Assembly: GCA_963748135.1 (NCBI GenBank)
Contig: CAVVHY010000004.1
Span: 1,495 to 65,494, forward strand
Length of the DNA: 64,000 nucleotides
Reading direction: 5' to 3'
DNA from: an uncultured Gammaproteobacteria bacterium
GTDB lineage: Bacteria > Pseudomonadota > Gammaproteobacteria > JBGSLN01
Position 1 is the first letter of the stretch. Each line of letters starts with the position of its first letter. Positions 12,001 through 33,000 of this stretch are shown piece after piece. Made by a program: the position numbers.

Positions 12001-15000
12001 TTACCAATACAGGTAACTGTATTCTATTTGACCCACAATAAATCATGTGCTACAATGGCGCGCACATCAGATAATCTTACTGAGGAGAGATAACCGATGC
12101 AACCAATTAAATCTACATTTGAATTGAGTTTAATTCCGCATGAGGAAATGGCTAAACAGCAAACATTACGTATAGGGACTCGTGGGGGCAGTTATATGGA
12201 TATTTTTACGGATAATTACTATATTCTAAAAATCGATATTGATCTTGATGATCAAGATCATGAGCTTTCCTTTACTTTTTCTGAAATTAAAAACGACCAC
12301 TGTTACTATCGTTTCTCTCACTCTCGAACACCACAAAGTGGTATGGTTGACGTACATAGCGTTTTGTTAACCAATCCTGAGTATCTATTATCAATGCTAA
12401 CAACTCTATTTACCATGAAAACAGCTGAGACTGAGATGACGGGGAAAGAAAAGATTATCGGTATTGCTGCTCCGCCACAGGATTTTAAGAGGAAGTTTCC
12501 TGTATATAAACTTGAGAAGACAGCGAATACAAGCGATAAAGAGGTCGAAGAGCATACAAGTAATATAGAAAAGACTAATTCTGCGGCAGAAGGACAGACA
12601 TTAGCCTCTGGAAATGTGGATTCGTTTACCTTATCGCGTCTACTCAAATATTTTTGTGAGCGTGATATGACGTCAGAAGAAGGTCTAGGACTAAAAACTG
12701 GGCTAATGACATTGCATTCGAGGCTCGAGACACATTATGCAGCACAGGTGCAGACACATTATGCAGCACCGGTGCAGACACAAGTGCTGCAAAAAGTTTT
12801 AAGTGAACAGTTCGGAAGAATGTCTAGAGATGTACCACCACCCCCAACTAATCCAGAAGCTAATCTTAGCTCAAGTCCTGAGTGGACTGGAGAACAACCA
12901 AAACCTTCTACTTTCTTCCACCTTACTCCTAATAATAAGTGATCTTGAATTGCAGCGTTTTGCAACGATGGGGCGCCAGAGCAACAGGCGCCTCTTTCCT
13001 TCCATGGCCCTCGGCGTTTCGCCCCGCGCTTCGCGCGCCCAAATTGGCTTTCCTGCCAATTTGTCGAACGTAATCTCTATTTATTTCGTCGGCCGTTCGT
13101 AGCCAGGAGACGTTCCACTTATTTCTTTATTAATCAATATATTGCGATGCACGACGTGAGTAAAATGTAGCCTATAATAGCCTGGGATACATAAGAAAAG
13201 CGTTAATGATCTACAATTTACCTACACCATTATAATTTGCTTACACAGCTTGAGTTTTATCAAAACATAGATTATAGTAATGATAGTTACGGTAATTAAG
13301 GTTTCTATAATGAGTTTTTACCACAGAAATAAAGAGCTTGATATTTTACAACTCACCTACAACCAAGCAAAAACTAGCGCTAGAATGGTCGTTATCACTG
13401 GCAGACGACGCGTGGGCAAGACCATGTTAGCTCTGAAACATGCTGAAAATAAGCCTCATATTTATCTATTCATTGCTAAGAAAGCTGAAAAACTTTTATG
13501 CATGGAGTTTCACAAGCTGATTTCCCAAACATTTGATATACCTATGCTAGGTGAAATATACGAGTTTAAAGATATATTCCAGATGTTACTAGAATTATCT
13601 AAACAACGACGCTTTGTTTTAATCATTGATGAATTCCAAGAATTTATCAATATAAACCCGTCCGTTTATTCTGACATTCAATCAATGTGGGATATAAATA
13701 AAGATAGCAGCCACATGCAAGTGCTATTTTTAGGATCTGTATACTCGTTAATGCATCGTATATTTGAAGACTCTCACGAACCTTTGTTTGGCAGAGCAGA
13801 TCGCCTATTTCATCTACGCCCCTTCAATCCGAAAGAATGTTATGAAATATTGAAACAACAGAATCATGATAGTATCCAGACGCTATTTAATTACTACGTT
13901 TTTACTGGTTTTACACCCAAGTACATTGATATGCTAATGACAAATAAAGCCTTCAGTGAGAAATCAATTATTAACTACATCTTCTCACCTGGATGCCCAC
14001 TGCTAGATGAGGGTCGCACTGTACTTATCGAAGAATTTGGGAAAGAATATGGCATTTATTTTTCGATTCTCGAACTCATTGCGGCGGGCTTTACTAGTCG
14101 TGGTCAAATAGAGTCAATCTTACAACGAGACACTGGTGGCTATTTAGAAAAACTTGACCGTGACTATGGTGTCATCAAAAAATTTAAACCCATCACTGCT
14201 AAACCTAATGCAAGACTACAGAAATATCATTTACGAGATAATTTTTTGCGTTTTTGGTTTCGCTTCATTTACAGAAATAGAACTGCAGTCGAAACAGAGA
14301 ACTTTGAATATTTAAAGGAAATTATCGCAAGAGATATACAGACTTACAAAGGCAAATTATTGGAAAACTTTTTTTATGACTGCTTTGCAATGTCTAAACA
14401 GTACAATAAGTTAGGCTCTTATTGGGAAAGAGATGGCTCAAATGAGATTGATCTGGTAGCGATCAATGATATGCATAAGAAACTCGTTATTTGTGAGGTC
14501 AAGTTACAGTATAGTAAAATTGACCTCAGCATCTTAAAGGCCAAATCAACGAAACTTTTAACATTTTATCCAGGTTATGATGTCAAATACTTAGGATTAA
14601 CACTTAATGACGCCGAAGACTATCTAAAATAATATGTGTGATTCATAGAGATCGTTTCAATTCTCGAAGCTTCATCTCCAAATAATAATTGGCTTCTTGA
14701 ATATGTTCTTTAGATAAGTCATACATGTCACAAACTTGCTCTTGTAAAGGAGTTTTATTTATCAATTCAGAGACCACTTGAGAAGGTGTTTTTCCATTGA
14801 GCCCACCATGAGGACGATTCCAATTATAATAAAACTGCCAATATCCCAGCTCTTCACTTAAAGCTTCAAATTTGGAAAATTCAGCAATTGCATAAAACTC
14901 TTCAAGATCAGTTTTTTGTGAACGTTCGACCTTGCCGTTTAAATGTGGCGAAGCAGGTTTAACTGGCCTAAATTTTATTCCATATTCCATAAATTTCTGT

Positions 15001-30000: not shown

Positions 30001-33000
30001 GTTTGGATATACAGAGACATAGCTTTTAAGCGGGCTTAGCTTTTGCTTTAGTGCTATTAGCTTTTGTTCGCTAACACCCAATTTTTCCAGATAATAACCG
30101 ATACGTCGAATGGTATTTTTATTACTATGATCTCTGGCGAGTTTAATAAACTCCATTAAAAATTTTTCGTCTTGACAGCATTGTCCTAACCATTGGTAAG
30201 CATCTTCGAGTAATTTATAACGACCCCAATCCTGAATAATATCAAGTATTGATTTTGCTTTAGTTGCGATATGAACGTCACCATAATTTGGCACTTTTTC
30301 AATATTAAATCCTACAATATTTTTACTTTTCGTTTTTATAAATGAAACATAAAGCGTCCCAAAATGTTTATTCCCCGAATATTTATCATTGTAAACTAAA
30401 AATTGGCTTGGAATTTGTTGGATCAGTCCATGATAATATGCAGCGTATAAACCACCTATATAATAATTTGCATCTAAAATTTTCATGTATTGTTCAATAA
30501 CATAGAAGTCATTTGGGCGCCAATACCCACCTGCTGGCAACTTTGCAGGCACAAGGTAAATTCCACGATGCAGACGAAGGATATATCCTTTATTGGTTAA
30601 TCGTTTTAATAAAGTATGTTCCTGGCTTTTTGTTAGCCCAAGCGATTCTTGTAGTTCGCCCTGTCGAACCAATGTCTGCTGTCGATGCTGCGCCAACGAA
30701 AAAAATTTTGAACCTAAAGGTCCTAATGAGGTTGTCTTTTTTCCCATAGTTATTCATTATATAGACTTTTAGAGTCTATATCAATAATAAAAATGGGAGT
30801 ATATTAATGGATTCAGCTAGAGATTATGACACCTAACTAACGTGGTGTACCTAACCCTTCAGACCATAAAATTTGCATTTGTGCCAGATAGTCGAATCCT
30901 CAACTACCTGGTTGCGAACCAGGTAGTCGAATGACCTTGTGATGCTATATTTGGATGATTTTATGAACGATATACAGCCTAGTGTACTAGTTTATACTAC
31001 AATTTTACTACATTTTCGATGAAACTCGACTTGTTTGAAACACACAAAGTCGAATAACTCATTGATTATAAATATTTATTATGGCGCGCCCGGACCGATT
31101 CGAACGGCCGACCGCCTGGTTCGTAGCCAGCCAGATCGATATATTTTTATTTTAAATTCAACAGCTTGCGACGCTACCCTACTGCCAAAAACTGCTATGC
31201 CCTACCCTAATAATGCAGCTTACAGCAGGGGGCTGGTACGATTCTGGTACATTGGTAAAAGTATAGTAGTACCCCTTGGCCAAATACTTTATATTGGATA
31301 TAAAATCAAAATCGACTTAAATATACTTAGACAATTGGGATACCAACCTAAAAATATTACCGTTTTGATGTTACTAAAATAAAGACATATTTGTTATAAT
31401 AATAATGTAATTCAATCGTTCATCTATGGAGTAATCTCACATGCATCAAATGAAATATCTTGTTTACAAAGAAGATGAATATTATGTCGCGCAATGTCTG
31501 AATGTTGATGTTTCAAGTTTTGGCAATAACATTGAAGAAGCGATTAGCAACTTAAAAGAAGCTGTTGAATTATACTTGGAAGATGATATAGGCCTTTCCC
31601 AATACCACCTAGTTGGTGAAACCTTAATTGGGGAAGCGGTTGTCAATGGCTAAGCTATTCTCATCAAATCGTATCGTAAAAGTATTGAAGTTACATGGCT
31701 TCGTATTAATAAGTCAAAAAGGTAGCCATCAAAAATATAGAAAAAACAGTAATACCGTCATCGTCCCTCATCCAAAAAAAGAAATTCCTATTGGGACATT
31801 TAAGTCCATTGTAAGGCAATCTGGTTTAAGCGAATCTGACTTTTAATAATGCAATACTGCAGATCGAATTCATGACACAAATCTGTCACATTTACAAAAT
31901 AGAAAGGTTACTGAAGAGTCGTAACCGTTTGATTTTATTGGCGCGCCCGGACCGATTCGAACGGCCGACCGCCTGGTTCGTAGCCATATGACACGCTACT
32001 TAATTCGTTATTAATCAACAGCTTGCGATGATCGACATGAGTAAAATGTAGCCTAAAATAGCCTAGAATACATAAGAAAAGCGTTAGTGATCTACAATTT
32101 TCCTACACCATTATAACTTGCTTACATGGCTTGAGTTTTATCATAACATGTATTATAGTAATGATAGTTACGGTAATTAAGGTTTCTATAATGATTTTTT
32201 ACCACCGAAATAAAGAGCTTGATATTTTACAACTCACCTACAACCAAGCAAAAACTAGCGCTAGAATGGTCGTTATCACTGGCAGACGACGCGTGGGCAA
32301 AGCTATTAAACGCCAACTACGATTGCCGAGTAGCTAACAAACTAATATGATTTTAACGATGGCGACTGAGGTGATGTTGGTTCTGGAAAAATGCTCATTT
32401 CAGACGCGAGATTCCCCTCAGAAGTTTCTTCATCTGGGATGCGAATATCATCTGGTGTATCCTTTTTCACGCCATCACCAAGGCCATTCTCAATTGTATC
32501 AGAGCGACTGTTTGTATCTGCCGTTCTGCCTGTGTCTTGTTGCTCCCTGTAGGCGCGGATTTTATCAATTTCTATCCACATTTTTGTACATTCTTCCCCC
32601 ATTGCATCGACTTTTTGATGAACTGCTTTATATTCTTTTAACAATTCTTTGATCTCTTCTAAGTGATTGTCCCAGAAACGAGTAAGCTCCTCGCAATTTT
32701 GCAAAAGTATTTCGATCCGCTGCGAATAATCTGCGTCCCAGTTTTGAATATCACGCCAATCCTCGTCTGATAGATCTTTATCGCTATTGCGTCGCTTAAG
32801 TACACCTTGCAGTTCTTCCCTAATAGCATCGATGGTGTTACACGCTTCTTTAAAAATAGCTTCACTTTGTTCTTTTTGCTGCCCTGGGTTTTTGTCAGGA
32901 TGATAACGCATTGCCAGTTCACGATATTTTTTGGTAATCGCCTGTTGGATTTCGACGTATTTCACCATGATGATTTCCTTGGGCGCACTAGCGAGTTCTT

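Follow-up and report, generated by a model that had tools for sequence, protein, structure and literature searches.

Tyrosine integrases of the class considered here recombine an element-borne attachment site (attP), which carries a copy of a tRNA gene from the anticodon stem to the terminal CCA, with the tRNA gene itself. On integration, the copy carried by the element restores the gene and the displaced 3' fragment lands at the far end of the element, beside its P arm; repeated integration at the regenerated site (accretion) then stacks islands with same-orientation tRNA fragments between them. Here we describe a 64,000-nucleotide (nt) stretch of DNA (hereafter, the window) from an uncultured gammaproteobacterium of the JBGSLN01 lineage (assembly GCA_963748135.1, contig CAVVHY010000004.1, positions 1,495 to 65,494), in which 3' fragments of tRNA-Arg(ACG) delimit small units that carry defense and toxin-antitoxin (TA) genes. 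We consider it probable that these units represent a decayed tandem array of genomic islands, each integrated by a tyrosine integrase into the 3' part of tRNA-Arg(ACG).

The arrangement fits a published three-step scheme of integration, decay to cis-mobilizable elements (CIMEs) and accretion, known from integrative and conjugative or integrative and mobilizable elements (ICEs and IMEs) such as ICESt1 and ICESt3 of Streptococcus thermophilus (PMC5704250). As in these accretions, att direct repeats stand at the 3' end of the target gene, the units have no integration or transfer genes and are stacked in tandem, and a conjugation module is found on the side expected for an incoming element. Specifically, two units, at 27504-31130 and 31082-31986 (units 3 and 4 below), are bounded by att direct repeats and contain no integration or transfer genes of their own; they appear to fit the CIME definition and would be movable only if a cognate integrase acted on them from elsewhere. 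As to derivation from an ICE or IME by deletion, the window holds a weak integrase relic at 22828-22893 (E = 0.09), and no parent element with the two kinds of arms (A and B) that adjoin the tRNA fragments was found. Unlike the Streptococcus elements, the target here is tRNA-Arg(ACG) and the host an uncultured bacterium of Legionellales/Coxiellales-like type, the units, of 857 bp and 3.6 kb, are unusually small and combine two diverged arm families with one core, no cognate integrase-bearing element or excision was observed, and the array was built partly by duplication.

Anticodon-centered attP sites are also a recognized class in the Islander collection, which accepts a tandem array only if each member has its own integrase and counts four arrays of three or more among 3919 islands (PMC4383910). 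The present array shares with these tRNA-gene islands the displaced 3' tRNA fragment at each island end, in the correct orientation (the fragments lie on a common strand in 6/6 cases) and with identity from the anticodon stem onward, but it has five or six fragments with neither any integrase nor an intact tRNA in 64 kb. Tycheposons of Prochlorococcus, in turn, are characterized by a lineage-specific integrase, hallmark replication genes and a conserved gene order, and the same study reports degenerated elements and scattered partial tRNAs (bioRxiv 10.1101/2020.12.28.424599). The initial annotation likened the array to tycheposons, with which it has in common repeated integration at tRNA genes and partial tRNAs between neighboring elements; the likeness ends there, since the array has no lineage integrase (inward-facing, at one end), no hallmark mobility or replication genes (primase, helicase, etc.) and no conserved gene order, its contents being only DUF234/DUF4143-type ATPases, AbiE, HicBA, DUF3800, ankyrin proteins, transporters and insertion sequence (IS) debris. 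Accretion followed by decay to CIMEs fits better. The finding illustrates known biology (the growth and decay of islands at a tRNA site) and does not extend it; its less usual aspects are that intact-looking units can be so small, that one core goes with two arm families and that an array without integrase is this long.

The fragments are defined by a 48-nt core, TGGCGCGCCCGGACCGATTCGAACGGCCGACCGCCTGGTTCGTAGCCA, which occurs in three mismatch-free copies on the plus strand, at 27504, 31082 and 31939 (the tRNA sense being the minus strand), with zero copies expected by chance based on 100 shuffles. Read as its reverse complement, the core comprises the anticodon stem-loop (ACG), variable loop, T-arm, 3' strand of the acceptor, discriminator and CCA. 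Identity to the tRNA extends over 50 nt in the first copy (27504-27553, the left boundary of a 3.6-kb cassette), 49 nt in the second (31082-31130, the right end of the 3.6-kb cassette and, at the same time, the left end of a HicBA cassette) and 48 nt in the third (31939-31986, the right end of the HicBA cassette and left end of a truncated unit), and 52 nt around the second copy are identical to 27501-27552. Three shorter copies have the same orientation as these (6/6). The first, at 27325-27342, reproduces the last 18 nt of the tRNA, from the 3' part of the T-loop to CCA, as a direct repeat of 27504-27521, and has in its left flank a site resembling that of integration host factor (IHF; one mismatch) and GTTACGA, as found at copy 31939. 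The other two are deleted remnants: one at 22911-22933 that keeps only the anticodon-arm part (18 nt exact from 22916, or 23 nt with one mismatch), and one of 13 nt, GTTCGTAGCCAGG, from the same part of the tRNA, at 13095-13107. Besides these six and an inverted, diverged piece of the tRNA 3' end (X, 27440-27471), the window has no other copy of the core; the D-arm and the 5' acceptor strand were found in none of its copies, and neither ARAGORN nor Rfam detected a tRNA gene in the 64 kb. All of this bears out the initial annotation, which had described the same full and degenerate copies, noted their missing 5' parts, and explained the smallest (placed at 13091) by a deletion between two GTTCG motifs, an explanation that fits the alignment. 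Furthermore, two contigs assembled from short reads of run ERR11523667, which may be the source sample of the window itself, match 22652-24449 (spanning the 22916 junction) and 27616-30131 at 100% identity, so that the structure is, at least in part, no artefact of a single assembly.

Scans of species-representative genomes and JGI metagenome contigs recovered the 48-nt core in 21 loci (denoted by L-numbers where needed). In 15 of the fetched loci, including metagenome-assembled genomes labelled Coxiella sp. and Legionellaceae, the 48 nt are the 3' part of an intact tRNA-Arg(ACG) gene, and 11 loci have tRNA-Ser(GCT) directly upstream of it. The mismatch to tRNA-Arg(ACG) that would have spoken against the initial annotation was not seen, based on these relatives' intact genes as proxy. 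Fragment-only copies exist outside the window as well, namely, two in L006 and one each in L007 and L010 (all on one 660-kb contig), one in L008 and one in L015. In every window copy and fragment-only copy compared, the tRNA-identical part spans 48-52 nt and has its boundary at the 5' strand of the anticodon stem, beyond which element-specific sequence takes over, and the sequence next to the core varies between genomes. All four core copies on contig CAWDVG010000004.1 share one orientation. Two of the fragment-only loci have cargo without an integrase: L006 has a 4.9-kb unit between two cores with AbiEi/AbiEii and an ankyrin protein, and L015 has an ankyrin gene on the 3' side of its fragment. 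The ankyrin, DnaJ and long-repeat proteins of the window are consistent with a Coxiella- or Legionellaceae-like host.

What adjoins the cores in the window is equally ordered. Each arm belongs to one of two families, whose reality as repeats was correctly recognized in the initial annotation: arm A (Repeat-A; 13108, 27554 and 31987, pairwise 82-88% identical) and arm B (Repeat-B; 22934 and 31131, 88.5% identical), which are only 54% identical to each other. They nonetheless have a common layout, with CAAYANNTTGYGAYG exactly 29 nt past the core, followed by short direct repeats (in arm A TAGCCTA, in arm B CTGCC) that recur about every 10 bp and, at the outer end, by two further direct repeats with 11-bp spacing (CTACA and CTGGTAC, respectively); homology between copies stops exactly at the outermost arm motif. 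All arms are described here on the plus strand. Arm A of the 3.6-kb cassette (27554-27672) resembles a P arm, with an IHF consensus (27578-27590), two TAGCCTA motifs spaced by 10 bp, and the last motif, CTACAATTTTCCTACA at 27657-27672, as its exact end. The two other A copies continue into an ATPase leader: 31987-32190 (IHF consensus 32013-32025, CTACA motif 32092-32107) and 13108-13309 (IHF consensus 13132-13144, CTACA motif with one mismatch 13211-13226). Arm B at 31131-31261 has CAACAGCTTGCGACG 29 nt past the core, CTGCC-type repeats spaced by about 10 bp and a terminal pair of CTGGTAC at 11-bp spacing, and is matched by 22934-23064. The opposite cassette ends resemble P' arms, also on the plus strand. 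The right end of the 3.6-kb cassette (30997-31067) carries the arm A motif, as CTACAATTTTACTACA, at 30997-31012, and that of the HicBA cassette (31871-31934) carries CATGACACAAATCTGTCA. Both also have an IHF consensus, which in the former (31055-31067) is 14 nt and in the latter (31922-31934) 4 nt away from the CCA end. The motif CTACAATTTTNCTACA is thus present in 3/3 A arms and, as a fourth copy, at the far end of the A-type cassette 27504-31130 (at 30997), with about 0.3 loose matches expected in the whole window; such placement at both cassette ends would be the behavior of arm-type sites on P and P' arms. A weaker parallel is offered by CATGACACAAANCTGTCA, common to the right end of the HicBA unit (31871) and to a site (23119) that lies about 55 nt past the end of conserved arm B in copy 22916.

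The placement of the IHF consensus, WATCAANNNNTTR, is consistent with the same reading. This consensus occurs at 0.41 per kb across the window, yet it lies at +4 or at +13 to +15 past the CCA in 8 of the 24 core copies examined, where about 0.02 would be expected per copy; in P-side arms it stands at -26 or -39, and its orientation is consistent within each class. None of three intact sites that are followed by a terminator-like hairpin (L002, L019 and L024) has it. Moreover, the three full cores are identical over 48 nt although the adjoining arms are 82-88% identical, and the chance of 48 nt remaining unchanged at the divergence of the arms is about 0.01. Identical cores beside diverged arms point to separate recombination events against a conserved tRNA. 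Taking together the fixed boundary, the orientation, the arm layout, the IHF-consensus offsets and the integrases of relatives (below), the fragments appear to be genuine att junctions of islands that integrated site-specifically. No match to a degenerate core-plus-arm pattern was obtained in IMG/VR or JGI metagenome contigs, blastn of the window against the loci fetched at that stage found only the core in common and no arms, and a promoter scan of the arms gave nothing above shuffled background.

Reading from left to right on the plus strand, from each core plus arm up to the next core, the array consists of the following units, in which all cargo named in the initial annotation is confirmed. 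Unit 1 (13095-22933) has arm A, a DUF234/ATPase_2 AAA ATPase of the PADLOC candidate defense family PDC-S27 (13310-14632, plus strand), IS21- and IS481-type debris, an AbiEii plus AbiEi pair (type IV TA/abortive infection; 17973-19710, minus strand), a major facilitator superfamily transporter, a 252-aa protein and the integrase relic. Unit 2 (22911-27342) has arm B, an AAA_14/DUF4143 ATPase of candidate defense family PDC-S01 (23206-24408, plus strand), an ankyrin protein and a 284-aa protein, and is followed by an inserted, structured segment of 161 nt (27343-27503). Unit 3, the 3.6-kb cassette (27504-31130), has arm A, a DUF3800 protein (27881-28708, plus strand), a second AbiE pair on the minus strand (29064-30747; AbiEii 29064-30020, AbiEi 29947-30747) and the P'-like end, and unit 4, the 857-bp cassette (31082-31986), has arm B, a HicB-like antitoxin (31441-31653) and HicA toxin (31628-31846) on the plus strand (31441-31846 overall) and its own P'-like end. 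Unit 5, from 31939, keeps arm A and 37 codons of a DUF234 ATPase and breaks off at about 32303 beside DnaJ-domain genes. Perfect cores bound units 3 (52 identical nt) and 4 (48 nt), and the remaining units have damaged ones. The truncated ATPase gene (32191-32337, plus strand), whose first 37 residues match the gene at 13310 and which stops after the Walker A motif, appears to mark the truncation of the right-most unit.

We also considered the DUF234 ATPase as a co-traveller of the core and rejected this role based on the contexts of its closest homologues (L013, at 75% identity, L025/L026 and L027), which have no core or arm upstream and share only the ATPase's own leader; hence, the ATPase is cargo rather than integration machinery. 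That leader, TATAGTAAT ... ATTACGGTAAT ... GGTTAC, directly precedes the start codon in four unrelated contexts (window 13265-13309 and 32146-32190; L013 ~9760-9800; L025 ~195-240; L027 ~1945-1985), and homologues 55-60% identical occur across several phyla. From these comparisons, the ATPase appears to be a single gene of high mobility that brings along a conserved control region of its own.

In agreement with the initial annotation, no integrase was found in the window by Pfam (covering likely-gene open reading frames (ORFs) of >=70 aa in 8-40 kb and most larger ORFs elsewhere), by tblastn with the integrase of L008, or by a profile of 80 family members run with filters off on every stop-to-stop frame. 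The best profile match in the six frames, LQFKMRHVENKRIRWLTLEETN, has 22 codons (22828-22893, plus strand; profile positions 145-166; E = 0.09, range 0.09 to 0.17) and lies directly left of remnant 22916; it matches the RIRWLT.EE block of the family on the strand expected for a tRNA-facing integrase. Because positions on the right strand and no more than 150 nt from a core make up <1% of the search space, we regard 22828-22893 as a probable relic of a tyrosine integrase, and a single deletion from mid-integrase into the core could have produced both the relic and the truncated core at 22916. The relatives show what may have been lost. In L008 a full tyrosine integrase converges on the fragment copy and ends 24 nt from its CCA; in L022 a 90-aa C-terminal integrase stump stands right after an intact tRNA; and L028 is a prophage whose integrase shares 71% identity with the L008 enzyme and stops 34 nt short of an intact tRNA-Arg(TCG), the gap containing an IHF-like site. 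The initial annotation proposed to look for a tyrosine or serine recombinase next to an intact copy; in these relatives an integrase, or the stump of one, stands directly beside tRNA-Arg. The window resembles these temperate-phage systems at tRNA-Arg (L008 family and L028) in that an integrase would converge on the tRNA, with its stop 24-34 nt from the CCA and an IHF consensus between; unlike them, it keeps at most a 22-codon relic, and its cargo is defense and TA genes, not phage genes. An integrase of the L008/L028 kind probably produced the array. As for the suggestion that the recombinase was supplied in trans or lost, loss is favored for at least one unit, the one with the relic, and no trans-acting candidate was identified. 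Separately, two proteins at the integrase position, of 281 and 252 aa, were examined as recombinases and set aside, having no Pfam, NCBIfam or PADLOC match and no similarity to the integrase profile; we treat them, on their sequences, as effector-like paralogues.

Alternatively, the locus might be an active cassette system without its own recombinase, in which an att core, modular arms and one defense or TA module form a unit that an integrase encoded elsewhere (the neighboring conjugative element, another ICE, a prophage or the host) inserts, excises and shuffles. The 857-bp HicBA and 3.6-kb DUF3800-AbiE units would then be members of a system with at least two interchangeable arm families in Legionellales/Coxiellales-like hosts, reminiscent of integron cassettes or of integrative mobile elements exploiting Xer (IMEX), which borrow host XerCD. 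Several of the features described above are what such a system would lead one to expect: complete arms sit tight on intact cargo in both small units, between perfect direct repeats of 48-52 nt; one arm type goes with varied cargo (A with ATPase or DUF3800, B with ATPase or HicBA); homology ends exactly at the outermost arm motif; the A-type cassette has a matched motif at both ends; L006 and L015 have integrase-less units at the same site; and 64 kb pass without any integrase. However, there is no sign of movement, and none of the collections searched contained any cassette or arm in a second context (look-ups of the longest-ORF ATPase, HicA and HicB returned nothing). It is for this reason, the missing second context, that we judge an active cassette system unlikely. 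In addition, decay at this site is evident from the relic by 22916 and the stump in L022, deletions have damaged several copies, the closest ATPase homologues occur in other contexts without core or arm, and no candidate for the trans-acting integrase has emerged. Nor is the locus an integron, given that it has no tyrosine recombinase and its boundaries are tRNA fragments rather than attC-type imperfect palindromes. The decayed-island reading implies that the units are probably immobile at present.

A further alternative is that the array arose mainly by local segmental duplication of one attR junction (flank, core, arm and ATPase), followed by divergence, deletions and replacement of cargo. 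Part of the left half does speak this language. Repeat-C, a genuine repeat as initially annotated, is present at 13005-13099 and 27358-27452 (96% identical), its second copy (13005-13094) being fused to remnant 13095 by a deletion, and a composite left flank of Repeat-C, X and a bidirectional terminator is common to copies 13095, 22916 and 27504, with a different micro-homology deletion in each; the terminator said to be kept at copy 27504 was located at 27478-27497. Such a common flank indicates duplication and deletion, not three independent integrations. Paralogous genes with 3' parts 90-98% identical lie left of 13095 and 22916, and arm A plus the ATPase start occurs twice (13095-13394 and 31976-32275). 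Nevertheless, duplication alone does not explain two arm families, 54% identical, on the same core and flank: two copies of the composite flank lead into arm A and the third into arm B, which implies exchange at the core. Neither does it account for identical cores beside arms that differ by 12-18%, for the different, IHF-bearing left flank of copies 31082, 31939 and 27325, which is like the flanks beside integrases in other genomes, or for the recurrence of the core-plus-arm logic in unrelated genomes. We thus consider duplication as the main process quite improbable, while the left half of the array appears to have been shaped by duplication and recombination as well. The initial claim of repeated integration at one tRNA-Arg att site accordingly stands as far as the att-junction features go, but not for copies 13091 (13095), 22916 and 27504, which are related through duplication plus deletion and do not represent three independent integrations.

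The 161-nt segment at 27343-27503 holds Repeat-C, X and the terminator, is bracketed by the 18-nt direct repeats of the tRNA end and folds better than shuffled sequence (z = -6.1); it is either the native downstream flank of the tRNA or a miniature insertion of T-loop type. We also examined whether X could be the end of a convergent tRNA gene and rejected this idea, the tRNA-Arg(CCT) gene that is convergent with tRNA-Arg(ACG) in L016 having a different 3' end; the 3' end of X was present in none of the fetched loci. The paralogous proteins mentioned above (12097-12942 and 21868-22626) have no family match, are 60% identical, lie each just left of a tRNA-fragment remnant and each end in a proline-rich tail; the 90-98% nucleotide identity of their 3' parts extends into downstream DNA, which suggests recent gene conversion. 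A perfect 22-bp inverted repeat, CTTGAATTGCAGCGTTTTGCAA / TTGCAAAACGCTGCAATTCAAG, is found at 22629-22650 and 22812-22833, with about 160 nt in between, just left of remnant 22916, and one of its arms recurs at 12945-12966. A low-threshold Rfam search of 12.5-32.5 kb returned only plant and animal microRNA look-alikes, that is, chance matches to inverted repeats.

Finally, AbiEii-family nucleotidyltransferases are reported to be active on tRNA 3' ends, and the fragments do keep the anticodon arm, T-arm and CCA next to a strongly structured segment, but expressed tRNA-like RNAs (e.g., processing signals or decoys for AbiEii and HicA toxins) or a dispersed tRNA-derived miniature inverted-repeat transposable element (MITE) or short interspersed nuclear element (SINE) are very improbable, as the fragments, which have no 5' acceptor strand or D-arm, score nothing in ARAGORN or Rfam and have no promoter signal over background, and there are no terminal inverted repeats or target duplications, every copy is in one orientation and one region, the boundary is fixed at the anticodon stem, the neighboring sequence is genome-specific, and the flanks differ by arm type.

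Hence, we favor the tandem accretion of tyrosine-integrase islands at tRNA-Arg(ACG), with the order of events reconstructed as follows. Islands would have integrated one after another at the regenerated site, and their integrases, probably together with much other content, would have been deleted later, leaving units that consist of an att core, arms with predicted IHF-type and arm-type sites, and a small payload (AbiE twice, HicBA, DUF3800 and the AAA ATPases of PDC-S27 and PDC-S01). The left part (13095, 22916 and 27325/27504) would have been shaped further by duplication of the composite junction and by micro-homology deletions. The over-representation of AbiE and HicBA probably reflects survivorship, because deletions of addictive modules are counter-selected, so that att sites and TA modules would be what persists.

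Several observations weigh against this interpretation. The expected right-hand end of the array, within the window, has no intact tRNA-Arg, the right-most unit being truncated at about 32303, and the identity of the core as a tRNA rests by proxy on the genes of relatives. The sole integrase relic is statistically weak when taken alone (E = 0.09) and has no Pfam match, and, with arms A and B found neither in IMG/VR nor in JGI metagenome contigs nor in the fetched loci, no integrase-bearing parent element with these arms is known. Given the duplicated left flank at three junctions, part of the array appears to have arisen without site-specific integration. The arms of the two small cassettes abut intact cargo very tightly, unlike what random decay would produce, which leaves room for selection on mobility. 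Lastly, the 64 kb contain no housekeeping gene and include a conjugation module at 51.5-64 kb; the whole stretch might be on a plasmid or ICE rather than at a chromosomal tRNA locus.

The array provides an example of a tRNA hot spot that gathers defense and TA modules in an uncultured, effector-rich (ankyrin, DnaJ) gammaproteobacterium of intracellular type. Island finders that demand an integrase for every island do not see arrays such as this one, so that such arrays are probably under-counted. The two arm families on one core, together with the IHF-consensus sites at fixed offsets, also constitute testable att-site models for the L008/L028 integrase family. If the small units were mobile in trans after all, they would represent a minimal packaging format for defense genes, and the locus an integron-like or IMEX-like exchange of defense cassettes at a tRNA gene.

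Outside the array, the conjugative-transfer module (51570-64000) encodes MobC-like, coupling protein, S26 peptidase, HNH protein, TrbI, VirB9/CagX, VirB8 and VirB6/TrbL functions. The best matches of the coupling protein among PLSDB plasmids are 30-36% identical, which does not settle between plasmid and ICE. The module occupies the side on which one would expect a more recent element and the intact tRNA, and it may be linked to the array. Two IS3-family copies (orfA plus orfB; 36130-37310 and 47782-48962), which share at least 300 identical nt and have the same orientation, enclose about 10.5 kb with a 998-aa ORF without family match, an ORF at 45935-46468 with weak similarity to APOBEC-like deaminases (E = 0.0016) and an IS481-like transposase (46558-47556), and may form a composite transposon.

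Among the relatives, a conserved sequence, TG(T/G)GGTCC..., begins 6-8 nt past the CCA of the core in L007 (~550-590), L010 (~4950-4990) and L023 (~302-340), that is, at two fragment copies (L007 and L010) and one intact tRNA (L023). An IS481-like DDE transposase gene adjoins it in L007 and L010, and the scanned ORFs of L023 had no Pfam matches. The sequence is probably the inverted-repeat end of an IS481-like element, and its placement suggests either a target preference for the spot or co-propagation with the att site.

Other repeats and genes of the window are of a more general kind. A perfect 41-nt repeat (19788-19828 and 24590-24630) lies downstream of two unrelated genes, and two long near-perfect hairpins are found at 23140-23202 and 24426-24502; L013 has two further copies of the hairpin motif CAGGGTCAAGTCTT, upstream of its ATPase homologue. 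Repeat and hairpins resemble REP- (repetitive extragenic palindromic) or MITE-like intergenic elements of the lineage. At the left end, a 2116-aa ORF (1569-7919) contains tandem 153-nt (51-aa) repeats and a related family of 62-nt sub-repeats and looks like a large repeat-containing, effector-type protein. It is followed by an alpha/beta-hydrolase that is split over two adjacent minus-strand ORFs (8266-9352; N-terminal part of the profile at 8972-9352, C-terminal part at 8266-8823) and is probably a pseudogene, judging from its sequence. To the right of the array, two adjacent DnaJ-domain genes (32342-34815) are tandem paralogues, 74% identical over 183 aa, with matching repeats at the DNA level.

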